Virus record (IMG/VR): IMGVR_UViG_3300027260_000002
DNA: 64,000 nucleotides
Origin: a virus
Lineage: Duplodnaviria; Heunggongvirae; Uroviricota; Caudoviricetes
Strand: one strand, 5' to 3'
Below are positions 506-63,426 of this stretch, piece by piece. Position 1 is the first letter of the stretch. Every line of letters begins with the position of its first letter. Below the pieces are notes generated by a model. That model ran no database searches. It saw only the letters and a list, made by a program, of their open reading frames with translations, and had not been told where the DNA came from. Made by a program: the position numbers and the translations under genes.

Positions 506-768
506 TGGATCCACAAATAATTGCAGAACTGGTAAAACAATATGGATTTCCAATTGTCGCAGCGGTCGGCATGGGTTATTTTGTGTGGTTCATCTATAAG
601 TTCGTAACAGATAAACTAATGCCATTGATTGGCGAAACAAATGTAATTTTAATTGCGTTGATTGATCGTGTCCGTATGTTGGATAACGATCTTATTCGAT
701 TGAATCAGAAGGTGAACGTTGTATTGCAGATAAAGGAAGATCACAGTGAACATAAATCTAAAGATTGA
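505..768 (+). CDS. small membrane protein, paralog B of a tandem pair
   Basis: MDPQIIAELVKQYGFPIVAAVGMGYFVWFIYKF... aligns with 218..505 (shared GFPI(A/V)AA, G.FV.F, LI...R, D.IR). ATGA overlap with the previous stop. Confidence 0.5.
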   Translation: MDPQIIAELVKQYGFPIVAAVGMGYFVWFIYKFVTDKLMPLIGETNVILIALIDRVRMLDNDLIRLNQKVNVVLQIKEDHSEHKSKD

Positions 769-842
769 AATCATCAAGATCTTCACACTTGAATTTAGTC
801 TTTCTTCGAACAAAGATATACCTTTTAAGAGGGAAAAGAAAG

Positions 843-1283
843 ATGAAAAAGAGTCTGCTCCTGCTAGCTCTGATACTAAGCAGCCCAGCAAAAGCTGATC
901 CACTCGTACAGCAGTTTAAAAGTCCGTCCTTCAATGGATATGGATGGTCACAACATGTGCAGGCAATCGATGCGCAAGAACGTTCTCGTGAACAAGCAAT
1001 CAAAGATGCAGAAGCAGCAAAAGCCGCTCTTGCAAAAGCTGAAGCTTCGAACACTCCGCTTGCAAAGTTTATGGCTCTGTTTACCTCTCAGGTATATGCT
1101 CAGCTAGCCACACAGCTTTCAAACAATCTCTTTGCCGAAGGTTCTGCTCAGCAAGGCATGTTCAATCTCGATGGTAACACAATTAGCTATGTAAAAACTG
1201 GCACATCTGTGACGTTGACAGTTGTCGACAAATTTGGTAACACGACAGTCGTGACTGTTCCTATCGCAACGTTTGCGTTTTAA
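843..1283 (+). CDS. csgF: curli assembly component CsgF-like secreted protein
   Basis: ATG at 843 preceded by GAGGG. Signal peptide MKKSLLLLALILSSPAKA. Mature N-terminus DPLVQQFKSPSFNGYGW resembles E. coli CsgF FQFRNPNFGG. Lies immediately upstream of a strong CsgG homolog, matching the csgEFG gene order. Confidence 0.55.
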   Translation: MKKSLLLLALILSSPAKADPLVQQFKSPSFNGYGWSQHVQAIDAQERSREQAIKDAEAAKAALAKAEASNTPLAKFMALFTSQVYAQLATQLSNNLFAEGSAQQGMFNLDGNTISYVKTGTSVTLTVVDKFGNTTVVTVPIATFAF

Positions 1284-1292
1284 GGAGAAGTC

Positions 1293-2117
1293 ATGAAAAA
1301 GCTAATTTTACTTCCACTGCTTCTTGTCACAACTGCCTGCGCAGGCGGAGTGCATCCTCATCTCAATCAGTCGTATCTGATGAGAGAAGATGCCGAGGTA
1401 GAAAGATTTGCAAATCCTAAGTTGTTCAGAACTCTACCAGAACTTGACGGTCAGGTAATTCCGATTGCCATCTACTCGTTCACTGATAGAACAGGACAAC
1501 GCAAACCTTCTGCTACTCAAGCCAGCTTTTCGACAGCCGTGACTCAAGGTGCAGATGCTTATGTTATCAAAACATTGGCAGATGTCGGAGATGGCAAATG
1601 GTTTAAACCAGTCGAGCGTGTAGGCATCGATTCTTTAATTAAAGAACGTCAGCTCGTAAGACAGATGAGAGAGCAACAACTCGGAGAAGGTGCTGAGCCA
1701 CTTCCTCCTTTGATGGTTGCGGGTATCATTCTTGAAGGTGGTATTATTGACTATAGTTCAAATACCAAAACTGGTGGTAACGGTGCACGATTCCTTGGAA
1801 TCGGCCCTTATCAACAGTATGCAGAAGATCAAGTTACTATTAGTATGCGACTCGTATCAGTACAGACAGGAGAAGTCCTGACCTCTGTCACTGTTGAGAA
1901 GAATCTGCTCTCTACGTCCGAGGGAGTGACAGCATTTAAGTTTTTTGACATGGCAACAAAAGCTTTTGAATTCGATGGACAACAAACATCGAATGAAGCA
2001 GGTAGTTATGCGATCCGTTCAGCCATAGAAACGGCCGTTGTGGAATTGATCAAGGACGGTGAACGTAAAGGTCTATGGAGATTTAAGCAAAAGGAAACAA
2101 CAAATGAAGGTAATTAA
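1293..2117 (+). CDS. csgG: curli production/transport outer-membrane lipoprotein CsgG-like
   Basis: RBS AAGGAG. Signal peptide ending ...TTAC (possible lipobox Cys). Blocks IAIYSFTDRTGQRKP, GNGARFLGIG and SAIETAVVELIKDGERKGLW match conserved E. coli CsgG blocks (VSVYNIQDETGQFKP, GVGARYFGIG, SAIETGVIFLINDGIDRGLW). Confidence 0.85.
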   Translation: MKKLILLPLLLVTTACAGGVHPHLNQSYLMREDAEVERFANPKLFRTLPELDGQVIPIAIYSFTDRTGQRKPSATQASFSTAVTQGADAYVIKTLADVGDGKWFKPVERVGIDSLIKERQLVRQMREQQLGEGAEPLPPLMVAGIILEGGIIDYSSNTKTGGNGARFLGIGPYQQYAEDQVTISMRLVSVQTGEVLTSVTVEKNLLSTSEGVTAFKFFDMATKAFEFDGQQTSNEAGSYAIRSAIETAVVELIKDGERKGLWRFKQKETTNEGN

Positions 2118-2877
2118 ATCTTTATTCGTTGGAGCTGCTCTTCTTTATGGAACATCTGCGATTGCACAAACAGTGCTACCAACAGCCCCAACTCCACCAG
2201 CAATTGTAACTACGTCACCAAATGAAGTGACTGCAGCTGCAGTAGCTACAACAAACAAAGTATATATCGACCAAGAAGGTGGTAATGTAGATGTTAACAT
2301 TGTTCAAACTGGTACTGCTAATATCATTGGCGACAATGCTGATCCTATCTATTTACGAGGTGATAATCAAAGTGTCATCGCTGTTCAAACCGGTAACGGA
2401 AACGAACTCTACATGGGCGTGGTCTCCGCTACAGGAGCAACAGGAATCGCAGCAGTAACTGTTCGTCAGATCGGTAATCTCAACACTGCAGACATTCGTT
2501 GCGGCACGCTTCAATCTGATGCTATCTGTAACAAGTTTGATCTGAATGCCAGATTTACAGGCGATTCAAACTCGCTCGTATTCCATGGTTCAGGCGAAAA
2601 CATTCGTAACTCGATGGATATCACTGGTGACAACAATGCATTCAACATCGATGCACTCTCGCCTAACGCAACTCAAACCATTCTCGTGACTGGTGATTAC
2701 AATGACTTCGACGTGACACAAACAGGTCTCGGCGGAACATTCGGCCATTCTCTGTATGTGAACCTCACAGGTACACTGAACACCATTACAACCCAACAGT
2801 ACGGAGCTTCTGAAACCGTAATCAATATTAACTCGGCGGGTTCAAATGGTACGTTTAATATTAAAACTGGCCATTAA
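2104..2877 (+). CDS. secreted curlin-repeat protein (CsgA/CsgB-like amyloid subunit candidate)
   Basis: ATG 2104, signal peptide MKVIKSLFVGAALLYGTSAIAQ. Multiple Q-x-G-x-(G)-N-type repeats (IDQEGGNVDVNIVQTGTANIIGD, IAVQTGNGNELYMG, VTQTGLGGTFGH, TTQQYGASETVININ) reminiscent of curlin repeats. Confidence 0.55.
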   Translation: MKVIKSLFVGAALLYGTSAIAQTVLPTAPTPPAIVTTSPNEVTAAAVATTNKVYIDQEGGNVDVNIVQTGTANIIGDNADPIYLRGDNQSVIAVQTGNGNELYMGVVSATGATGIAAVTVRQIGNLNTADIRCGTLQSDAICNKFDLNARFTGDSNSLVFHGSGENIRNSMDITGDNNAFNIDALSPNATQTILVTGDYNDFDVTQTGLGGTFGHSLYVNLTGTLNTITTQQYGASETVININSAGSNGTFNIKTGH

Positions 2878-3982
2878 TGCACTCTTTCTGATATCGGTTC
2901 CAGCTTTTGCAGGCGTGGGATCGATATCAGAATTTCAGGGTGGAGGTTCTGTAAAGCGTGGTGCAAAAGTTGCACCTGCTGCTAAAGGCTCGAGTATCGA
3001 GAAGAACGATACTGTGTCGACCAATTCTCAAGGTAAATTTAAGATTCGATTCGTCGATGCCACCACTGTGAACATCACACAGAATTCACGGCTGGTCATC
3101 GACGATTTCGTATATGATGGAAACAATAAGAGCAAAGGCAAGCTCGGTTTGAAGCTAGCTTTAGGAACTGCAAGATATACTTCTGGAGCGATTGCTCATG
3201 GCAATGCTCGTGGTGTCGGTATACGTACACCGACTGCAACGATCGCCGTAAGAGGTACAGACTTTGTCATGTCTGTCGACGAAGCTGGCAGATCGACAGT
3301 CGTTCTTGTTCCTGAATGTTACAATGACAAAGATATCACAAAGATCAACTTCGAATGCCCATCAGGAGCTATCGACGTGATCACTGCTGCAGGTATCGTC
3401 ACTCTGACTCAGCCATTCCAAGCAACGATGGTCGAGAATTCTTATGCGCCTCCTGCTCCTCCTGTCGTCATCAATCCTTCAATGAAGGGTATGGACAACA
3501 ATATTCAGATCTCTCCCCTCGAAACCGATGATGGACAATCACTGATCACAGCAGCTCGTGAAGCTTTGAAGAAGTTTGTCAATCCTGCAAAAGCGGCATC
3601 TGACGATAACCAAGATCCAAATACTGGCGGAGATGGTGTAGAAGAAGTAGCGGTGGCTACACTTCGTTTGCCTACACAGAATGAACTTCAAGAAATTTAT
3701 GCAGAGTATAATTCTGGAAAGAGGCCTACAGAAACCGTTTATACGAACGTATCGCCCACTTTTAAGAAGTTGGTGCAGGTAGGTTGGGTATACTCGAGAA
3801 TCTCTGAAGATAAGAATCAAGTTGTCGTGGTATGGTTACCAAAAGATACTGAAATCCAAATGATTTCATCTCATAATGGTGTCGTCGACGCATACAATTT
3901 TATGGATGATAAATGGACTACGACTGGCACAGGTAGACCGCAAGGAAATATCACCGTGATACAAGAATCGGGTGTAAGATGA
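2846..3982 (+). CDS. secreted protein with FecR-like beta-sandwich region
   Basis: N-terminal hydrophobic signal. Central segment IRFVDATTVNITQNSRLVIDD...IAVRGTDFVMSVDEAGRSTVVLVPEC matches the FecR-domain pattern (GT.F.V ... V.V.EG). Start is uncertain because it overlaps the previous gene by 32 nt. Confidence 0.4.
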   Translation: MVRLILKLAINALFLISVPAFAGVGSISEFQGGGSVKRGAKVAPAAKGSSIEKNDTVSTNSQGKFKIRFVDATTVNITQNSRLVIDDFVYDGNNKSKGKLGLKLALGTARYTSGAIAHGNARGVGIRTPTATIAVRGTDFVMSVDEAGRSTVVLVPECYNDKDITKINFECPSGAIDVITAAGIVTLTQPFQATMVENSYAPPAPPVVINPSMKGMDNNIQISPLETDDGQSLITAAREALKKFVNPAKAASDDNQDPNTGGDGVEEVAVATLRLPTQNELQEIYAEYNSGKRPTETVYTNVSPTFKKLVQVGWVYSRISEDKNQVVVVWLPKDTEIQMISSHNGVVDAYNFMDDKWTTTGTGRPQGNITVIQESGVR

Positions 3983-5439
3983 TGAGATGGATCTTAACAC
4001 TACTACTGTTAACGTTCAGCGTACAGTTAAATGCGCAGACGCCTTCGAACTATGGTTTCGAAGATGGAAATTATGCGGGTTGGACGGTGTCGAACGGATC
4101 TACTGCACTTCGTACTTCATGGAGCGACACTGGTAACGGTGTACAAGTGACAACTGGAGTACAGAACTATTGCCCAGGCGGTGGTAAGTGCTGGACGATT
4201 ACTCCGTATGGATCGTACATGTTATCGATTCAAGCAGGAGGAAACTCGCCCAATTTTAATGCTGCGATGACTACTCTTGGGCTCAGCGCTTCTAACATTA
4301 CATCTATTCGTAACACGATCTATTCGAACGGATCGATGTATCCTACGAACGCTTCTTCAGTCAGTCGAACAGTATTCTTGCAGGCAGGAATTACATATTC
4401 GTTTGGTTGGCAGTATCTGTCGACAGACTATGTTCCGTATAACGATGGTTCTCTCATCACCTTGACGGGTGGACCGGGAACACCGACTCTCAACGGTCAA
4501 ACACAAAACTATGCGCTGTTAGGCTTTACAAATCCTGGAACTGGCAACTATTCGACTAACTCTTATAGTGCTACTGGCTGGCAAGTTGCCGTGTTCACGG
4601 TTCCAGCAGATGGCAACTATATGCTTGGATTCTCTTCTTTCAACCTCGGTGACACAGCTCTTTCGCCTATCTTATTCATCGATCAGTTACAAGGAACAAC
4701 GTCACTGAATGGTGCTACGTTTGCTCCTGTTGCACCGAACCAAGGATCTTCGGCACCGACTGCACCACCTCCACCTCCTGCAGAACCAGTATATCCAACT
4801 ACATCGATTACTACCAATCAAACTATCAAGCTCGGTCAAACGAATGCCATTACGAGCAACTCGATTTACATTCAAAATATCGGTGATAACAATACCGTCA
4901 ACATCGAGCAGTTCTCGAGGTTTAACGCTATCAGAGGTGTAAATGGTTCTCAATCGATGTTGATCAATGGTAGCAACAACTCCATTACTATCAATCAAGG
5001 TACTGCGGTCGCAATTCTTGGTAATAATCTTGCCGAAGTCTCTGTGACAGGAAACAATAACACCGTATCTCTGACTCAGCAATATAATGGCAAGTATGCA
5101 GAGCTAATAATGAATGGAACAGGAAATCAACTGACTGCCCAACAGAAAGATACTGGTGGAAAGTCTGCGTTCTTCAACATTTTAGGTAACTCGAATGTGA
5201 TTACGACTCTTCAACAAGGAACTGGTAATCATTTCCTCGATGTCAGTGCTCCGTATGGTGGGTTGAATGCAAATATCACTCAATCTGGTTCTGCACAGAA
5301 GCTGTTTAAATTGGTAATAAATAATCCTGGAATTGGAGTCACTGTATCGCAAACTGCCGCGAGCGTTACTGACTCAGTCTTAATGTCAATCACCTGCGCC
5401 ACTGGGCCATGTACTGGATACAGCTACGTAAAGAATTAA
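3979..5439 (+). CDS. secreted protein with N-terminal globular domain and C-terminal curlin-like repeats
   Basis: Signal peptide MMRWILTLLLLTFSVQLNAQ, Pro-rich linker APTAPPPPPAEP, then repeats SLTQQYNGKYAELIMNGTGNQLTAQQKDTGGKSAFFNILGNSNVITTLQQGTGNHFLDV (Q-x-G-x-G-N-x-A/L-x3-Q curlin motif). Confidence 0.55.
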   Translation: MMRWILTLLLLTFSVQLNAQTPSNYGFEDGNYAGWTVSNGSTALRTSWSDTGNGVQVTTGVQNYCPGGGKCWTITPYGSYMLSIQAGGNSPNFNAAMTTLGLSASNITSIRNTIYSNGSMYPTNASSVSRTVFLQAGITYSFGWQYLSTDYVPYNDGSLITLTGGPGTPTLNGQTQNYALLGFTNPGTGNYSTNSYSATGWQVAVFTVPADGNYMLGFSSFNLGDTALSPILFIDQLQGTTSLNGATFAPVAPNQGSSAPTAPPPPPAEPVYPTTSITTNQTIKLGQTNAITSNSIYIQNIGDNNTVNIEQFSRFNAIRGVNGSQSMLINGSNNSITINQGTAVAILGNNLAEVSVTGNNNTVSLTQQYNGKYAELIMNGTGNQLTAQQKDTGGKSAFFNILGNSNVITTLQQGTGNHFLDVSAPYGGLNANITQSGSAQKLFKLVINNPGIGVTVSQTAASVTDSVLMSITCATGPCTGYSYVKN

Positions 5440-5441
5440 TT

Positions 5442-6026
5442 ATGTTTATTTTTATACATGATAATGGCAATCTAAATGTTTTATCTATGACTAAGTGCGG
5501 TCATACGGCTATGTCATATTATTTTGGAATAGAACTACCAATGCAAAAAACATTTGCGCATTGGATAGAAGGAGAATCTCCGAAAGTAGTAGTATTAAGG
5601 CATCCAGTAGAACGTATGCATTCTGCTATTAATTTTCATGAAAAGCAATTTAATGAACGAATAGTAAAGTATAAAACCACCGGAGAATGCGACGACTTTT
5701 CTCTTATTGAAGACTTGATTAACTGGGATGATCGTCAACGAGAGTGGGAAATTGAAAGATTTATTTTTAATCAACACTGTCGTCCATATATGCATATTAT
5801 AAAAAATAGAGATTTTAGAATTATAAAATTTGAAGATCTATCTCAATATATTCCAAAGATATCACCCCGAGGCGCTGAAACCAATACTACTAATAGAAAT
5901 ATAGATCCTTTTCCAAAGAATAGATACTTTAAACGGGAAGATATGATAAAAGAGATTGAATTGTATGAGAGTCTTTTAGTAAATAGAGAAGTTATAACAC
6001 CCGAAGAATGGAAAGCGCTGACATGA
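5442..6026 (+). CDS. sulfotransferase-family protein
   Basis: ATG 5442 directly after the upstream stop. TKCGHTA (PAPS 5'-phosphosulfate-binding-like) and RHPVERMHSA (RxPxxR 3'-phosphate-binding-like). Markedly AT-rich relative to its neighbours. Confidence 0.45.
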   Translation: MFIFIHDNGNLNVLSMTKCGHTAMSYYFGIELPMQKTFAHWIEGESPKVVVLRHPVERMHSAINFHEKQFNERIVKYKTTGECDDFSLIEDLINWDDRQREWEIERFIFNQHCRPYMHIIKNRDFRIIKFEDLSQYIPKISPRGAETNTTNRNIDPFPKNRYFKREDMIKEIELYESLLVNREVITPEEWKALT

Positions 6027-8071
6027 TGAAAAAGATTCTACTGAGCCCGTGGTTGGCGCTCTTTACATTTGCAGTACTATTTACTTTTAAGTTACAAGAT
6101 CCATATCTAGTTGAAGCGACTCGTCTTAAATTTTATGACTACATCATGCTCGATAAAGCAAAACAATCTGAGCAGATTGTAGTCGTTAATTTAGGGGAGA
6201 AAGCAATTGAAAAATATGGCCAGTGGCCGTTCCCGCGTGAAGTCCACGCTGAAATTATTGGGAACATTTATGGCCGAGGGGCTGCTCTTGTTGGCAGCAC
6301 TGTACTTATGCCTGAGCCTGATCGGATGGGCACTGATCGAGTTCTTGTTGATACTCTAAGCAAGTATCCAGTTGTTCTTAGTCAGACTGTGTCGGCGGAT
6401 TGTGGTCGACCATCCAGTCGCGATGTTCGTCGGACAGGTGTGGCTGTTGTTGGGGATGGCCAGTCAACCGATTTTCTTCCGTCATATCCATGCGTCCTAT
6501 CGAATCTAGCATTGCTTCAGCAGCATGCTGCTGGTGTTGGAGTGACATCAACTCTTCCTGAACCTGACGGTGTTGTGCGACGAGTTCCGCTTCTCGCAAC
6601 CTCAGCGGGTGAATACTACCCTGCATTTGCTCTAGAAATGTTAAGAGTTGCTGCCGGAGATCCTTCGTATCAGGCAAAGATAAATGAGACTGGTGTGGAA
6701 GCATTACGAATTCCTTCTTTTGAAACTATTAAGACCGATGAATATGGTCGCGTGTTTATTAATCCAAACTATCGATTTGAGTCATACGAAATTGGCAAGG
6801 ATCCTTTGCCTGTCCTGAGTGGTAAAATCGTGATTCTCGGAGTAACTGCAGCTGGTGTAAGTAACCCTGTAGCGACTCCTTCAGGTGCGCAGTATCCCCA
6901 TCAGCTCCAGGCGAGTATTCTTGAGACTCTGATAAATGGTGATTCGGTTTCGATTCCGAATTGGACACAGCTTGTAGATCTTGCTGCTCTTCTTGTTTTG
7001 GCTCTGGCATTGATCATCATCTCTCGATTAAAATACTCTATCGTCTGGATAGGTTTAATTTTAGGCGGATATCTTTATCTGCCTATGTATTTATTCGCAA
7101 GCAAAGGAATCTTGTTAGACGTCACGTTTAACGTCATCGCAATTGCAATTATTTACATGCATATCTATACAGTGAAATTTATATCTGAATTCCTTCAGAA
7201 GCAACAAATCAAGAAACAGTTCGGCACATATCTGAGTCCAGATCTGGTAGCAAAATTGCAAAGACAACCAGATCTCTTGAAGTTAGGCGGAGAATCTCGC
7301 GAGCTTTCAATCATGTTCACAGACGTTCGAGGATTTACTACAATCTCTGAACACTATGGTGAAGATGTCCAAGGTTTGACTTCAATCATGAATCGTTATA
7401 TGACGGTCATGACAAGAGCGATCCTTGAAAACAATGGGACATTAGATAAGTATATTGGTGATGCACAGATGGCATTCTGGAATGCGCCGCTCGATAACAA
7501 ACAACATGCACGAGATGCAGTTCGAACAGCATTTCAAATGCTAAAAGACCTGGAGATATTTAATGAAGAAGTTGAAAGAGAAGGTATACCCGCTTTTGGC
7601 ATGGGTCTTGGTATTAACACTGCCACTGTGGTGGTTGGTAATATGGGCAGTAGCCAGCGTTTTGATTATACTTGTCTGGGTGATGGCGTTAATCTGGCTG
7701 CTCGTCTGGAAGGTCAATCCAAACCTTATGGCGTCAAACTCGTCGTCGGACCACAAACTGCCGAATTGGTTGGGGATGTATACCAAGTAGTTGAACTCGA
7801 CCTGATCGCCGTGAAAGGTAAGACAGAACCTGCTCGCATCTATACCATTTTTGATGTGGCAGATCCTGCTGGAGAATTGCTGCATAAAAAGTTCTTGGAC
7901 TTCTATCGTCAAGGTAAATGGGATGCAGCTATCAATCTGATAAAAGATCTGAAACGTTGCTGGGACGAAGAGCTGAATGCATACTACGATATGATGGAGA
8001 AACGCATTCAGAATCTAAAGTTTGAAGAACCCTGGGAATGGGACGGAGTTTATAGAGCTACAAGTAAGTGA
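6023..8071 (+). CDS. CHASE2-sensor class III adenylate/guanylate cyclase
   Basis: ATGA overlap at 6023. N-terminal signal/TM then a periplasmic CHASE2-like region. TM cluster (LVDLAALLVLALALIIISRL, IVWIGLILGGYLYLPMY...). C-terminal cyclase domain with LSIMFTDVRGFTTISE ... KYIGDAQMAFWNAP ... FDYTCLGDGVNLAARLEG. Confidence 0.8.
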   Translation: MMKKILLSPWLALFTFAVLFTFKLQDPYLVEATRLKFYDYIMLDKAKQSEQIVVVNLGEKAIEKYGQWPFPREVHAEIIGNIYGRGAALVGSTVLMPEPDRMGTDRVLVDTLSKYPVVLSQTVSADCGRPSSRDVRRTGVAVVGDGQSTDFLPSYPCVLSNLALLQQHAAGVGVTSTLPEPDGVVRRVPLLATSAGEYYPAFALEMLRVAAGDPSYQAKINETGVEALRIPSFETIKTDEYGRVFINPNYRFESYEIGKDPLPVLSGKIVILGVTAAGVSNPVATPSGAQYPHQLQASILETLINGDSVSIPNWTQLVDLAALLVLALALIIISRLKYSIVWIGLILGGYLYLPMYLFASKGILLDVTFNVIAIAIIYMHIYTVKFISEFLQKQQIKKQFGTYLSPDLVAKLQRQPDLLKLGGESRELSIMFTDVRGFTTISEHYGEDVQGLTSIMNRYMTVMTRAILENNGTLDKYIGDAQMAFWNAPLDNKQHARDAVRTAFQMLKDLEIFNEEVEREGIPAFGMGLGINTATVVVGNMGSSQRFDYTCLGDGVNLAARLEGQSKPYGVKLVVGPQTAELVGDVYQVVELDLIAVKGKTEPARIYTIFDVADPAGELLHKKFLDFYRQGKWDAAINLIKDLKRCWDEELNAYYDMMEKRIQNLKFEEPWEWDGVYRATSK

Positions 8072-59597: not shown

Positions 59598-59944
59598 AAA
59601 AATTAATTGCATCTTTAGTTGTCGGTAGTATGCTAATCTCTACTCCTGCCTTTGCTGATCATCGTCGAGATCGAAATCGCGACCATGTCCAGCAAGAGCG
59701 TCGTAAAGCTGGCTGTGGCTGGCTTTGCGGCGCTATCATCGGTGGTGTTGTAGTTGGTGCTCTCAGCTCAGGTAATCGCGATCGCGAGAGGGATCGTGAG
59801 CGAGAAAGAGATTATGAGCCGCGCGACGATAATCGCTACTATCCACCAGATTATAGATATGATAGACGCTATTGCGTTCGTGAACAAATCACCGAATGGT
59901 ATCGTGGCGAACGCTACGTTTATTGGGAAACCCGTTGTAACTAA
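59594..59944 (+). CDS. secreted protein with glycine-zipper and RD/RE dipeptide repeats
   Basis: Signal MKKLIASLVVGSMLISTPAFA; GAIIGGVVVGA; RDRERDRERERDYEPRDD. Confidence 0.45.
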   Translation: MKKLIASLVVGSMLISTPAFADHRRDRNRDHVQQERRKAGCGWLCGAIIGGVVVGALSSGNRDRERDRERERDYEPRDDNRYYPPDYRYDRRYCVREQITEWYRGERYVYWETRCN

Positions 59945-59954
59945 GGAATAATAC

Positions 59955-60392
59955 ATGAAAAATTTTATTGCGCTAGCACTCGTGTTGCTGGCAACTCCAG
60001 CTATTGCACAGAAGACACCTACAGGTGTGACATATGACACTACCATTGTTCGTGCGATTGATGGTGATACGATCGTCATTACCGCACCGTATCTGCCAGC
60101 TCCTCTAAAGCCTGAACTTGGTGTTCGAATCTTTGGTGTCGATACACCTGAAAAGAGCTTTCGTGCCAAGTGTGAGAGCGAGAAGAAGCGTGGCGAACAA
60201 TCTAGTGAATTCACCAATTTGGTAATCAAATCTACAAAGAAGCATCAGGTTGTTCTGTACGATTGGGATAAGTTCGGTGGACGTGTTCTTGGAGATATTC
60301 TCCTTGATGGCATGAGCCTTCGAGACCTTCTCATCAAGAATGGTTTTGCACGTGCATATTTTGGTGATGCAAAGCAATCTTGGTGCAATTAA
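59955..60392 (+). CDS. secreted thermonuclease (staphylococcal-nuclease-like, SNase fold)
   Basis: Signal peptide, then VRAIDGDTIVI...VRIFGVDTPE...GGRVLGDILLDG...LIKNGFARAY matches SNase catalytic blocks. Confidence 0.75.
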   Translation: MKNFIALALVLLATPAIAQKTPTGVTYDTTIVRAIDGDTIVITAPYLPAPLKPELGVRIFGVDTPEKSFRAKCESEKKRGEQSSEFTNLVIKSTKKHQVVLYDWDKFGGRVLGDILLDGMSLRDLLIKNGFARAYFGDAKQSWCN

Positions 60393-60424
60393 GCATGTAC
60401 AATTAAAGCCCGTTGGGGTATAAA
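60387..60424 (+). promoter_or_regulatory. CATGTACA-N17-TATAAA(TAG) promoter upstream of the tmRNA gene
   Basis: ATGTACA 60395-60401, TATAAATA 60419-60426. Confidence 0.45.
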
Positions 60425-60430
60425 TAGAAT

Positions 60431-60495
60431 ATCAGTTGTTGACAATCAACAATAAAGGCGGAAAGACCGGGGTTCGACTCCCCGCACCTCCACCA
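60431..60495 (+). ncRNA. ssrA: tmRNA acceptor piece (3' tRNA-like half) of a circularly permuted two-piece tmRNA; 5' boundary approximate
   Basis: T-arm CGGGG-TTCGACT-CCCCG at 60468-60484, acceptor 3' strand CACCTCC 60485-60491, discriminator A 60492, encoded CCA 60493-60495. The complementary 5' strand lies downstream, not upstream, so the gene is permuted. Confidence 0.75.
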
Positions 60496-60577
60496 TGGAC
60501 ACACAGTCTTTCAACCACATTGCACAGGATGTAATGTCACGACAGATTGACTGAGTTGCGCAACGTGTGTCCATGAT
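60496..60577 (+). other. intervening segment of the permuted tmRNA precursor, closed by a 10-bp inverted repeat
   Basis: ATGGACACAC (60495-60504) pairs perfectly with GTGTGTCCAT (60565-60574). This juxtaposes the CCA end and the GGGGGTG 5' end, as in alphaproteobacterial ssrA precursors. Confidence 0.6.
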
Positions 60578-60900
60578 GGGGGTGACTATGGAATTCGATT
60601 TTCGTGTAATAGGGCGGTTTGAGACTGATTGCTTGGCAAAGTGCCACTAAACATAAATGCTAACGATAACGATAGCTTTGCAGATATCCGCCTAGCGGCA
60701 TGATCTACACGGGTATGGCTCCACCTTGGAACAGAACGGGCCACTTACTACCAGTTGAATGACTGGTGCTACGAGTCGCCAGAAAAACTGCTGGCGGTAG
60801 TATAAATAAAATATCACGACGGAGGTTAGAATCCTCCATTGACTCTTGCAAAACTTCAAGTCTTAGATGGCTAGAAAGCGGCATCATTCGGATGCCACCG
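60578..60900 (+). ncRNA. ssrA: tmRNA coding piece (5' acceptor strand, D-loop analog, PK1, tag ORF, downstream pseudoknot region); 3' boundary uncertain
   Basis: GGGGGTG 60578-60584 pairs with CACCTCC giving G3:U70 (the AlaRS identity pair). ACUAUGGAAUUCGAU is a D-loop analog like E. coli AUUCUGGAUUCGAC. Tag ORF GCT AAC GAT AAC GAT AGC TTT GCA GAT ATC CGC CTA GCG GCA TGA at 60659-60703 = ANDNDSFADIRLAA*, preceded by an A-rich tract. Confidence 0.75.
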
Positions 60901-61062
60901 ACGAAAACACTAATGATTTTGCATTTCCAGTAAGAGGGAAATGGATGGAAGATACTTCGTTATTCTCTTGTGTATCTTCTTATAGCGGCAGAAAACTATA
61001 TGGCTGGGATGCCTGTAAAGTAGTCTCTGTTTGCCAAAGTCATTGAGACTAAGAGGAAGAAC

Positions 61063-61641
61063 ATGAAACTTTTCGAAACTAGAAAAGATTTCCCGTATCT
61101 ACGCTGGGCCGAAGGCTTTGTCATAGGTATCATTGCAGTAACAGGTGTGGCTTTGGCTACACCAAACAAAGAACCTGAAGTCAAGATCGTAAAGGTCCCA
61201 GTTATTCAGGTAATCGAAAAAGAAAAGGTCGTAAAGAAGCCAGTCTATCTGAGCAACTACGACAAAAAACAAATCCAATGCATGGCCGAGAATACATACT
61301 TCGAAGCTGGCCATGAACCTTATAAAGGTAGGATTGCGGTAAACAATGTTGTTTTGAACCGCGCAAAAGACGATCGTTTCCCAAGCACGCCATGTGGAGT
61401 TATCAATCAGAGAACTGCGCGCGTATGCCAATTTTCATGGAAGTGTGAGGGTGGAAAAAGAATTCGTGATGGTGTAGCCTTTGCAAAAGCAAGGGAAATC
61501 GCCGAACATGTGTATCTCGGAAATTACGGTGACGTAACAAAGGGAGCAAAGTTTTACCACGCTGACTACGTAAGTCCGTCATGGGGTAGAGTGTTTGCTC
61601 GTACGACTAAGATTGGTGCACACATTTTTTATAGAGGATGA
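61063..61641 (+). CDS. SleB-family cell-wall hydrolase (N-terminal TM anchor)
   Basis: C-terminal domain CMAENTYFEAGHEPYKGRIAVNNVVLNRAKDDRFPSTPCGVINQ...QFSW...YHADYVSPSW fits the Hydrolase_2/SleB pattern. Confidence 0.7.
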   Translation: MKLFETRKDFPYLRWAEGFVIGIIAVTGVALATPNKEPEVKIVKVPVIQVIEKEKVVKKPVYLSNYDKKQIQCMAENTYFEAGHEPYKGRIAVNNVVLNRAKDDRFPSTPCGVINQRTARVCQFSWKCEGGKRIRDGVAFAKAREIAEHVYLGNYGDVTKGAKFYHADYVSPSWGRVFARTTKIGAHIFYRG

Positions 61642-61892
61642 TTATTATGGTGGACGACGTCATTTCAACGAAAGCATTGACTTCTGAAAAGTTCATTAAA
61701 GAAATTGAACGATTGGTTATTAATTATGATTTAGATTATATGGATGCCGTCGTCCACTATTGTGAAAAGAATAACATCGAGATCGAGGCTGCCGCGAGTA
61801 TCATTCGCAGTAACATTCGTATCAAGGCTCGTCTACAAGACGAAGCAGAAGATCTTAACTTCTTGCCAAAGAGGGCTAAGCTACCAGTATGA
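61638..61892 (+). CDS. dsbA: DsbA-like dsDNA-binding late-transcription accessory protein (T4 dsbA-like)
   Basis: YMDAVVHYCEKNNIEIE...DLNFLPKRAKLPV resembles the T4 DsbA C-terminal region. Position upstream of gp59-gp32 as in T4. Confidence 0.55.
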   Translation: MIIMVDDVISTKALTSEKFIKEIERLVINYDLDYMDAVVHYCEKNNIEIEAAASIIRSNIRIKARLQDEAEDLNFLPKRAKLPV

Positions 61893-62464
61893 CTCCATTC
61901 GAGAGCTACACCACTTTCCTCGCCCTTAAAAACCACTTCACAACAGACAGCTATGACTACATCAAATACAACGGTAAGATAGGTGCAAAGCCTTCGAGCT
62001 TTGATGTACGTAAGGACAAGTATCAGTTCTATAAGTTGTCGAAACATAAAGATCCGCTCAAATATCTGGTTGCCAACTTTGTAGATGGCGATTTGAAATG
62101 GATAGGCGATCTGTTTGATGATGACTCAGAGAAAGTGTACAATGAATGGTTGAAGAGACAGCAGTCTCTTTCTTATATCTTCGAAGAAGACGTAAAAAAA
62201 CTATGTACAAATTTCAATGATTGTGTTATTGTAAAGAATGGGCAACATCCCTTCTTACTGAAACAATATCTTCGTCGAGAGATTTCTATCGAGACGGTGA
62301 TTATCCTCAATGATATCTTCGGGTTCTTCGGTCATTGGAACAAGAAGATTGAGGATGGTGTCCTATGGCCCAGCATCCACAAGAAGCTGCTGAAGTATAA
62401 GCCCTTTTTTCATTATGATGCATTTAAATGTAGAAAAATTGTCAAGGATGCTTTTACTTCATGA
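61889..62464 (+). CDS. 59: helicase-loading protein (T4 gp59-like)
   Basis: YDYIKYNGKIG...RKDKYQFYKLSKHK...WIGDL...FEEDVKKL parallels T4 gp59 (YDVIKYN...RRDKYFFQKLSEKY...WIGDI...FEEDIRNI). Confidence 0.7.
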   Translation: MTPFESYTTFLALKNHFTTDSYDYIKYNGKIGAKPSSFDVRKDKYQFYKLSKHKDPLKYLVANFVDGDLKWIGDLFDDDSEKVYNEWLKRQQSLSYIFEEDVKKLCTNFNDCVIVKNGQHPFLLKQYLRREISIETVIILNDIFGFFGHWNKKIEDGVLWPSIHKKLLKYKPFFHYDAFKCRKIVKDAFTS

Positions 62465-62529: not shown

Positions 62530-63426
62530 ATGTCATTTGCAGACCTCAAGCGTTCTTCCAGCTCTTCTTTTGAGAGGCTCACTAAAGAACTTGCTAAACA
62601 AAATACCACATATTCAGATCCCGATGAGGGCAAATATTGGAAGCCTACCGTCGATAAGGCTGGTAACGGATACGCCGTGATTCGTTTCCTTCCTGCGCCA
62701 GTCAACGAAGACATTCCTTTCACTCGCATCTGGGACCATGGATTCCAAGGACCAACAGGTCTTTGGTATATCGAGAAGTCGTTGACGACTCTCGGTAAAG
62801 ACGATCCCGTGTCAGAATACAACAGCGTTCTTTGGAACACTGGTCTTGACTCTGATAAGGAGATCGCACGCAAGCAGAAGCGCCGCTTGGCATACCACAG
62901 CAACATCTATGTTGTGAAGGATCCAGGCAATCCTGCGAACGAAGGTAAGGTCTTCCTGTACAAGTACGGAAAGAAGATCTTCGATAAGCTTAACGACCTC
63001 ATGAACCCAGGTTTTGAGGACGAGAAGCCAGTAAATCCTTTCGATCTTTGGAACGGTGCTAATTTCAAGCTCAAAATTCGTAAGGTCGAAGGTTGGCCTA
63101 ATTACGATAAGTCAGAATTCGACTCTCCCGCACCACTGTTCGATGATGACAGTGAGCTTGAACGTGTCTACACTCAAGAGTATTCGCTTGCGGAACTCGT
63201 AGATAAAAAGCAATTCAAGTCTTATGAGGATCTCAAGACTCGTCTGAACACTGTCTTGGCTCTTTCTGCGGAACCTGCCAAGATTCGCGGAGTTGATCGT
63301 GATGAAGAGGAGTATAGAGCTCCTGCGCCTACCTTCAAGGCGGCTGCTGCACCTGCTGCAGCTTCTACGGTCGATGAAGACGACGATGATCTCGATTTCT
63401 TCAAACGACTTGCCGAAGAAGATTGA
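62530..63426 (+). CDS. 32: ssDNA-binding protein (T4 gp32-like)
   Basis: KAGNGYAVIRFLPAP, HGFQGPTGLWYIE, VVKDPGNPANEGKVFLYKYGKKIFDKLN and an acidic C-terminal tail all parallel T4 gp32. Confidence 0.9.
   Translation: MSFADLKRSSSSSFERLTKELAKQNTTYSDPDEGKYWKPTVDKAGNGYAVIRFLPAPVNEDIPFTRIWDHGFQGPTGLWYIEKSLTTLGKDDPVSEYNSVLWNTGLDSDKEIARKQKRRLAYHSNIYVVKDPGNPANEGKVFLYKYGKKIFDKLNDLMNPGFEDEKPVNPFDLWNGANFKLKIRKVEGWPNYDKSEFDSPAPLFDDDSELERVYTQEYSLAELVDKKQFKSYEDLKTRLNTVLALSAEPAKIRGVDRDEEEYRAPAPTFKAAAAPAAASTVDEDDDDLDFFKRLAEED

Follow-up and report, generated by a model that had tools for sequence, protein, structure and literature searches.

The stretch of viral DNA analysed here, IMG/VR record IMGVR_UViG_3300027260_000002 (Caudoviricetes), is 64,000 nucleotides (nt) long and will be called the window. 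On its plus strand, on which all the features of this locus lie, a gap of 670 nt free of open reading frames (ORFs) extends from 60393 to 61062. A sequence-only reading of this DNA had described an ORF-free interval of ca. 650 nt and had assigned most of it, up to 60900, to a phage-encoded, circularly permuted (two-piece) transfer-messenger RNA (tmRNA, ssrA) with an intact tag frame. The gap is there as described, but the tmRNA gene takes up only ca. 60432-60745, and an end at 60900 runs into a separate leader element. Judged on its sequence, the region is a genuine and intact phage-borne circularly permuted tmRNA gene kept by selection. The concept is not new, since a permuted ssrA at this locus was reported in the phage Melnitz EXVC044M (MZ577097) (Buchholz et al., 2022; PMC9004378), and what we describe here is another member.

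The only RNA gene that ARAGORN called in the 64 kb is a permuted tmRNA (label tmRNA*) at 60400-60794 with the tag ANDNDSFADIRLAA. The Rfam model RF04321 (tmRNA_permuted, gathering score 47) matched 60434-60703 over its full length (model positions 1-213) with 90.3 bits (E = 4.7e-16), and was the sole Rfam family above threshold across the window. With permissive thresholds, alpha_tmRNA (RF01849, gathering score 50) was aligned to 60392-60745, also over the full model length, with 48.1 bits (E = 2.6e-12); it was the best-scoring family of the tmRNA clan apart from the permuted model and missed its gathering score narrowly. Both programs had been suggested as checks on the sequence-only reading, and its central claim, a permuted tmRNA with an intact tag frame, is upheld by the ARAGORN call, by RF04321 and by the comparative evidence given below, the covariance search agreeing for the permuted model and falling short for alpha_tmRNA. 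Neither of the two possibilities that had been raised against the call from the start, translation as protein and a conventional 5' acceptor strand upstream, is borne out. An ordinary tRNA, or a coding region misread as tmRNA, could account for a tRNA-like T-arm and for nothing further; ARAGORN calls no tRNA at the locus, there is no anticodon arm and no 5' acceptor strand upstream, no ORF of at least 60 amino acids (aa) overlaps 60432-60745 (the ones that do overlap are short and unconserved), and the covariance model is matched end to end, so that we regard such a misreading as having a negligible chance of being right.

Anatomy and limits of the gene

The circular permutation is seen in the fact that the CCA end (60495) precedes G1 (60578), with the intervening segment between the two. 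The acceptor piece (60432-60495, ca. 64 nt, the 5' end being placed from the promoter, with the Rfam model starting at 60434) contains the 3' strand of helix P2a (60458-60464), the T-arm (60468-60484, made of CGGGG at 60468-60472, TTCGACT at 60473-60479 and CCCCG at 60480-60484), the acceptor 3' strand CACCTCC (60485-60491), the discriminator A73 (60492) and an encoded CCA (60493-60495). Next comes the intervening segment (60496-60577, 82 nt), which would be removed on maturation. Its ends form a closing helix of 10 bp from the inverted repeat ATGGACACAC / GTGTGTCCAT (60495-60504 / 60565-60574), the first A of which is the terminal A of the CCA, and a 3-nt linker, GAU (60575-60577), lies between this helix and G1. 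The coding piece (60578-60745, ca. 168 nt) opens with the acceptor 5' strand GGGGGTG (60578-60584), 82 nt beyond the CCA, giving a 7-bp acceptor stem with G3:U70 (60580 paired with 60489). Directly after it come the D-loop analog (60585-60598) and the P2a 5' strand TTTTCGT (60599-60605), followed by a hairpin at the position of pseudoknot 1 (PK1; 60634-60637 with 60643-60646). An A-rich run precedes the resume codon GCT (60659) of the tag reading frame GCT...GCA (60659-60703, encoding ANDNDSFADIRLAA), which is closed by the stop TGA at 60701-60703, with a stop-codon helix just ahead of it (CCGC 60688-60691 with GCGG 60695-60698). The last element is pseudoknot 2 (PK2; 60711-60742), in which stem 1 pairs GGGT (60711-60714) with ACCT (60723-60726), the co-varying stem 2 pairs GGCTC (60717-60721) with GGGCC (60738-60742), and the conserved loop is GGAACAGAA.

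The tRNA-like domain is therefore complete, with the 7-bp acceptor stem, G3:U70, A73, CCA and a T-arm with a GUUCGAnUC-type loop. All the parts on which the earlier call had been built (the run from T-arm to encoded CCA at 60468-60495, GGGGGUG at 60578, G3:U70 with A73, the D-loop analog, the A-rich tract, the GCU resume codon with tag and UGA, and the 10-bp inverted repeat on the 82-nt segment) could be read directly where it had put them, and taken together these elements are far beyond chance.

To collect relatives, an exact 25-mer of the T-arm/acceptor end and a pattern for the 5' strand were used as queries. The 25-mer matches 92 IMG/VR viral contigs, in ca. 85 of which ARAGORN calls a permuted tmRNA, and many of them are syntenic with window positions 59900-61700 at 80-99.9% identity. 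In ca. 50 distinct relatives the conservation of the family starts exactly at TATAAAT (60419), the sequences upstream being divergent. At this point lies a probable promoter of sigma-70 type (60396-60426) that would drive the gene, composed of TGTACA (60396-60401), a 17-nt spacer and a -10 TATAAA within TATAAATA (60419-60426). The hexamer 17 nt ahead of TATAAA is TGTACA in 17 distinct upstream sequences (window included) and TTGACA or TTGACT in 10, and the -10 of the relatives is TATAAATA or TATATATA. The predicted transcription start (ca. 60432) agrees with the Rfam model start (60434). A simple promoter scanner made no call at the 60396-60426 site. A T4 late promoter at 60419 was also considered and demoted, because many relatives have TATATATA and a canonical TTGACA 17 nt upstream, although in the window itself TATAAATA may still serve as one. 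As a separate observation, this motif, the T4-type late-promoter consensus, occurs seven times in the window (205, 10604, 18355, 27129, 29073, 60419 and 60801), always on the plus strand, against 2.2 expected (none of 100 shuffles reached seven), and both copies flanking the tmRNA sit in a 19-nt direct repeat (GTATAAATAgAATATCAg / GTATAAATAaAATATCAc).

At the other end, alignment of the relatives holds across tag and PK2 and breaks down past ...GGGCCAC, close to 60745. What follows PK2 varies from contig to contig: a ribosome-binding site (RBS) and an ATG at most ca. 25 nt past it (L010, L012, L035, L043), the TATAAATA motif directly past it (L015, L021), an insertion of ca. 510 nt (L026), or an insertion of ca. 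280 nt that parts from PK2 the two hairpins found in the window at 60751-60797 (L010, L025, L067, L084). We place the end of the coding piece at ca. 60745 because alpha_tmRNA ends there, because the relatives diverge or carry insertions there and because the tmRNA model of Melnitz ends after PK2. With boundaries at ca. 60432 and ca. 60745, the predicted mature RNAs are therefore ca. 64 nt (acceptor) and ca. 168 nt (coding) long. A coding piece of 250-320 nt, as had been expected at first, or one reaching the ARAGORN end at 60794, was rejected in view of the divergence after PK2, the nearby genes with their own RBS and the hairpins that belong to the downstream unit.

Covariation and selection among the relatives

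Covariation was evaluated in an alignment of 22 diverse members, the Ruegeria phage RpAliso and Melnitz included, in which the two pieces were joined and the unalignable intervening segment was excised; seven helices were tested, in a structure drawn on the window's own sequence. Of the cells in these 22 sequences 95.4% are paired (shuffles, 86.2%; slid partners, no more than 57.6%), and two-sided changes were found at 19 pairs where 6.6 were expected, a value as high as this being reached by none of 500 shuffles. Pairs changed on both sides are 6 of the 6 in PK2 stem 2 (compensatory examples are GUGGGA/UCCCAC, CUAGUUU/AAACUAG and UGGGAGA/UCUCCCA), 2 of 4 in PK2 stem 1, 5 of 7 in P2a and 3 of 4 in the hairpin at the PK1 position. 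The stop-codon helix changes register between tag groups, for which reason it has no column-wise score. The outer P2 helices showed no covariation in the 22 sequences; they are poorly matched to the model, and the Rfam alignment marks non-standard pairs in them. A local 7-bp hairpin in the acceptor piece (60436-60452) was tried as well and found weakly supported, being broken in 6 of the 22.

The tag codons tell a similar story. The tag ANDNDSFADIRLAA is coded by two sequences that are one synonymous CTA/TTA change apart (44 viral contigs), and another tag, ANDNNAYEGLALAA, by three sequences with synonymous differences only, in which the third-position changes flanking CUAGC are complementary (A/U, G/C, U/A). 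The gene is thus under selection, given the compensatory changes in P2a, PK2, the stop-codon helix and the closing stem together with the synonymous-only variation of the tag codons.

These patterns bear on two alternatives in which the RNA would not tag anything. One is that the gene is a mere passenger: a decaying, non-functional stretch of host ssrA acquired by chance, such as the attachment-site remnant of a temperate ancestor. It is true that tmRNA genes are common integration sites and that fragments of them are found in prophages (PMC9004378, PMC4383910); besides, 4 of the viral contigs have no tmRNA call, the match lying at the contig end with the rest of the gene missing (L011, L053 and L056 among them), and in L030 ARAGORN called a one-piece tmRNA ending at the contig end. 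However, the gene is complete and conserved from promoter to PK2 in the ca. 50 distinct relatives while flanks and segment diverge, its compensatory and synonymous-only changes amount to purifying selection, it sits in the replication-gene module of a T4-like genome, and no integrase was found among the ten large ORFs scanned (a scan of the window that was not exhaustive). The passenger explanation is thus very improbable, and the remark in the sequence-only reading that this is no attP remnant of a temperate phage holds on the same grounds of completeness, selection and genomic position.

The other is that the tRNA-like domain alone acts as a sponge for SmpB and inhibits host trans-translation, in the manner of the tag-less tmRNA-like RNA of mycobacteriophage DS6A, reported to inhibit tmRNA (PMC4131195, PMC11915505). 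Besides this precedent, it would fit a sponge that conservation in the gene peaks in the acceptor piece, which is almost invariant in the ca. 50 distinct relatives. However, conservation and covariation extend to the resume context, tag frame, stop-codon helix and PK2, none of which a sponge would need; we hold this explanation to be about as improbable as the passenger.

Intervening segment, tag and genomic surroundings

Across the family the intervening segment ranges from 5 to 157 nt, with sequences that are unrelated between groups. What persists is the closing helix, so that the inverted repeat first noticed in the window turns out to be a family-wide feature: in 35 of the 37 distinct segments of at least 28 nt there is a terminal helix of 9-14 bp, against a mean of ca. 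3 bp in shuffled sequences. It begins at A76 or two bases on and stops 3 nt (GAU) or 5 nt (UUGAU) short of G1, and the sequences of the closing stem differ from group to group. The fold of the window segment keeps this helix and otherwise is no better than that of shuffles (z = -1.22). Seven viral contigs with the window's tag (L003, L024, L033, L036, L048, L060 and L070) have a segment of only 5 nt (TTTAC or TCTAC), which suggests that the closing helix is helpful yet dispensable. Five segment types were each found with two tags (L005/L016, L022/L037, L012/L091 and L014/L064 among them). Such combinations of the same segment type with different tags imply that co-circulating phages have exchanged the 5' and 3' halves of the tmRNA gene by recombination, and the gene is evidently a mosaic in which segments and tags have been recombined.

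Some segments have contents of their own. In L007, L093, L010 and L043 the closing helix encloses a T-arm motif like that of tRNAs (GGTTCGAATCC or GGTTCAATTCC). The possibility that the segment conceals a tRNA was considered and discarded, as ARAGORN calls none in any relative. The longest segments, in the L009 group (133 nt) and in L015 (157 nt), contain small ORFs of 57 and 56 aa, respectively, that run into the tRNA-like domain; both are cysteine-rich, that of L009 has a good RBS (AAGAGGAAATT-ATG), and neither has a Pfam match.

By number of contigs the tags are ANDNDSFADIRLAA (44), ANDNVAFAGYALAA (27), ANDNNAYEGLALAA (6) and ANDNNAYGAFALAA (3), plus a few point variants. In these sibling tags the ANDN start and the LAA end are fixed and the middle is variable. 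When 185,579 species representatives (bacteria and archaea) were scanned degenerately for whatever sequence could encode ANDNDSFADIRLAA, there was no match, so the tag has no counterpart in these genomes and points to no host, and a search of the literature for the tag strings returned no report of any of the tags seen here. The 31-nt acceptor core is of no more help in this respect: among the matches listed in its scan are one-piece tmRNAs of unrelated phyla (Actinomarina, Acidobacteriota, Clostridia), and being matched in so many unrelated phyla it is not lineage-diagnostic.

A tag carried by 44 viral contigs and by none of the representatives, whose ends are constant and whose middle changes from one sibling phage lineage to the next, might suggest that it is the phage-specific tag itself that has been selected, to compete with that of the host and to redirect the rescued products (e.g., by escaping SspB or by meeting a phage factor). 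Selective tagging has been suggested as a possibility by Buchholz et al. (PMC9004378). Against it, the ANDN...LAA form is an ordinary one that would lead to ordinary ClpXP targeting, the middles of bacterial tags vary widely with no known change of fate, and no phage protease or adaptor was identified. We see tag reprogramming as a minority option, unlikely though well above the passenger or the sponge; it overlaps with the explanation that we favour, a functional ssrA rescuing ribosomes for the phage, and differs from it only in what selection acts on. A more elaborate view would make ssrA a modular, fast-evolving device in which, besides a phage-specific tag redirecting rescued proteins, the excised segment is a cargo slot releasing accessory RNAs. 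The size range of the segment, its co-varying closing helix, the T-arm motifs or small ORF in some and the free recombination with tags are what invite this view, which we consider doubtful and somewhat less probable than reprogramming by itself.

Downstream of the tmRNA, and outside it, two hairpins (CCAGT...ACTGG and CGCCAG...CTGGCG, 60751-60797) form part of the next unit. They have compensatory changes in relatives (CCAGC/GCTGG in L003, CACCAG/CTGGTG in L059); the second can be extended by GCUAC/GUAGU, and no T-run follows the pair. Then come the second TATAAATA (60801-60808) and a leader of ca. 250 nt that is conserved, structured and non-coding, the whole element (60801-61062) preceding the SleB-type hydrolase gene. 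The leader hairpins have compensatory changes (e.g., GGCAUC/GAUGCC, GGUAGG/CCUACC and GGAAUU/AAUUCC), and a co-varying long-range helix of 10 bp (AAUGAUUUUG...CAAAGUCAUU) closes a multi-branch domain directly ahead of the RBS. A 59-aa ORF at 60867-61046 was rejected as a gene because relatives have in-frame stops and frameshifts in it, its variable columns being spread over the codon positions as 27/29/27. The region 60300-61100 gave no Rfam family for the leader at E values up to 10, and likewise no glutamine riboswitch (RF01739, RF01704), while the same search finds RF01739 in Melnitz. Placed where Melnitz has its glutamine riboswitch, the leader is a candidate for a new cis-regulatory RNA.

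The gene upstream of the gap (59955-60392) codes for a 145-aa protein of the staphylococcal nuclease (SNase) fold whose N-terminus resembles a signal peptide (PF00565, precomputed on identical contigs). Downstream are a Hydrolase_2/SleB-type cell-wall hydrolase (61063-61641, PF07486), a gp33-like late-transcription coactivator (Trans_coact, 61638-61892, PF16805), which had been taken at first for "dsbA", a gp59-like helicase loader (61889-62464, PF08993) and the gp32 single-stranded DNA-binding protein (62530-63426, PF08804). Metagenome contigs with an identical gp32 have the Pfam order SNase, gap, Hydrolase_2, Trans_coact, gp59, gp32. An identical gp32 is encoded on the 63-kb JGI contig 3300027531 Ga0208682_1000020. 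Elsewhere the window encodes a family-B DNA polymerase, a DnaB-like helicase, NrdA/NrdB and a CHASE2-cyclase. No close relative was found among 50,697 deposited phage genomes. The gp32 protein is 55-61% identical to that of T4-like cyanomyoviruses and 59% to that of Melnitz, and the genes common to the window and Melnitz include CsgF, CsgG (49%), the cyclase (41% over 664 aa), thyX (56%), PhoH, a cell-wall hydrolase, gp59 and gp32. It is these shared curli-like genes, cyclase, thyX, PhoH, gp59 and gp32 that place the phage in the Melnitz/pelagimyophage-like group. Window positions 765-8071 hold the curli-like cluster, of a module that is rare in phages and was discussed by Buchholz et al. (PMC9004378), with CsgF-like 765-1283, CsgG-like 1293-2117 and further ORFs (26-49% identity to Melnitz), and after it the CHASE2 adenylate/guanylate cyclase (687 aa, 6008-8071).

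Known systems and proposed function

Permuted tmRNAs are by now well represented in phages. Buchholz et al. counted 53 among the deposited genomes of phages (50 being marine or aquatic), and of 47 contigs of Melnitz-like phages or pelagimyophages 17 had one; listed in their Table S1 are HTVC008M, Mosig, the T4-like cyanophages S-CAM1, S-CAM3, S-SSM7 and S-CRM01, phiCbK-like phages, the roseophage DSS3_MAL1 and RpAliso (PMC9004378). A tmRNA database holds 79 unique phage sequences (PMC11915505), and an earlier listing had one-piece phage tmRNAs only (Hudson, Lau and Williams 2014, PMC4131195).

The closest parallel is Melnitz, with its related pelagimyophages HTVC008M and Mosig. Like the phage of the window, it is a lytic marine myophage of T4 type whose two-piece tmRNA is permuted and located upstream of the gp33-like coactivator, gp59 and gp32, with a curli-like cluster in the genome. 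The promoter layout is the same (TTGACA-N17-TATAAATA in Melnitz, TGTACA-N17-TATAAATA in the window), the gene ends directly after PK2 with an AACAGAA loop, and the tag is of the ANDN...LAA type. However, there is no similarity at the DNA level beyond the tRNA-like core, the tag is ANDNDSFADIRLAA instead of ANDNYVPVDYALAA, the intervening segment has 82 nt instead of 142, and the alpha_tmRNA score is 48.1 bits against 106.7 in Melnitz. The window also has the extra SleB-type hydrolase gene between tmRNA and coactivator, and the two hairpins, the second TATAAATA and the unclassified leader take the place of the glutamine riboswitch (RF01739, 52.8 bits) that in Melnitz directly follows the tmRNA on its 3' side.

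In bacteria the model is the two-piece tmRNA of Caulobacter crescentus (RF01849), reportedly described by Keiler, Shapiro and Williams in 2000. The order of acceptor piece, intervening segment and coding piece is the same, and G3:U70, A73, the ANDN...AA-type tag and PK2 with its CAACAGAA loop are shared with the alphaproteobacterial tmRNAs. In contrast to these, the window gene is carried by a phage, scores under the family threshold, has a poorly matched outer P2 and specifies a tag found in no bacterial representative. Other phages with permuted tmRNAs (RpAliso, DSS3_MAL1, phiCbK-like phages, cyanophages) differ in tag, virus family and locus. RpAliso is identical to the window for 35 nt over the T-arm, acceptor strand and CCA and also has a co-varying PK2; it has a 30-nt intervening segment with an 11-bp closing helix, the tag ANENFAPVEMAVAA and a gene placed in a tRNA cluster. 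This gene (OR257569, 2441-2784) is without GenBank annotation, and an unannotated 44-nt match (84%) to the T-arm/acceptor, for which ARAGORN makes no call, is present in phage CcrBL10 (2501-2544) and three related Caulobacter phages. The one-piece phage tmRNAs of the mycobacteriophage Bxz1 group and Bacillus phage G (PMC4131195) are similar in that the phage supplies the trans-translation RNA, but they have the standard non-permuted form and Gram-positive hosts.

On this basis the gene could work as follows. The sigma-70-type promoter (TGTACA-N17-TATAAATA) would give a single precursor RNA containing, in the order in which they are seen, the acceptor piece with its encoded CCA end, the 82-nt intervening hairpin and the coding piece. 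The closing helix would juxtapose the CCA end and G1 so that, by analogy with Caulobacter, host RNase P would cut 5' of G1 (60578) and the 3' end would be trimmed to the CCA (60495). The ca. 64-nt acceptor RNA and the ca. 168-nt coding RNA thus released would, on the same analogy, be held together by the 7-bp acceptor stem and P2a. Host alanyl-tRNA synthetase would charge the molecule through G3:U70 and A73, identity elements that are in place, and with host SmpB and EF-Tu it would enter stalled ribosomes, where resumption at GCU would add ANDNDSFADIRLAA, the C-terminal LAA targeting the product to ClpXP-type proteolysis. The benefit would likely be that ribosome-rescue capacity is held high during the infection, when host RNA synthesis fails and non-stop mRNAs abound through mRNA breakdown.

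Several results weigh against this reading. The alpha_tmRNA score stays below its threshold (48.1 bits against 50). At the PK1 position the 22-sequence alignment shows a co-varying hairpin only, with no second stem resolved. Thermodynamic co-folding of the two pieces, another of the checks suggested at the outset, recovers the intermolecular acceptor stem and not P2a; it pairs instead 60456-60462 (AGGCGGA) with 60687-60693 (UCCGCCU, inside the tag), perfectly complementary stretches whose match is probably accidental, since relatives with other tags do not keep it. In the 22 sequences pairing of the acceptor stem and T-arm is complete (100%), but among the IMG/VR relatives this invariance is partly built in by the search, and since these were fetched by the exact 25-mer located there and by the 5'-strand pattern it is weaker as evidence; Melnitz, obtained independently, does retain G3:U70. 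Finally, no SmpB gene was found in the 64-kb window (with an E. coli SmpB query), and the RNA would therefore have to rely on the SmpB of the host. Taking all this into account, we put at roughly 0.85 the probability that the region is a functional permuted ssrA of a lytic, T4-like marine myophage of the Melnitz/pelagimyophage-like group that operates by the mechanism proposed.

The gene adds an uncultured lineage of ca. 85 viral contigs to the set formed by pelagimyophages, Melnitz and cyanophages, and with it a comparative picture of a minimal two-piece tmRNA (ca. 64 + ca. 168 nt) in which PK2 is the sole full pseudoknot. New for the family are the conserved closing helix on an otherwise free segment, the mosaic of segments and tags, a tag unseen in bacteria and a locus without the riboswitch of Melnitz. 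None of these details alters the known concept, but they could guide experiments on the processing of permuted tmRNA precursors and on the function of phage versus host tags. A tmRNA carried by the phage shows that large lytic phages invest in working ribosomes after the shutdown of their host.

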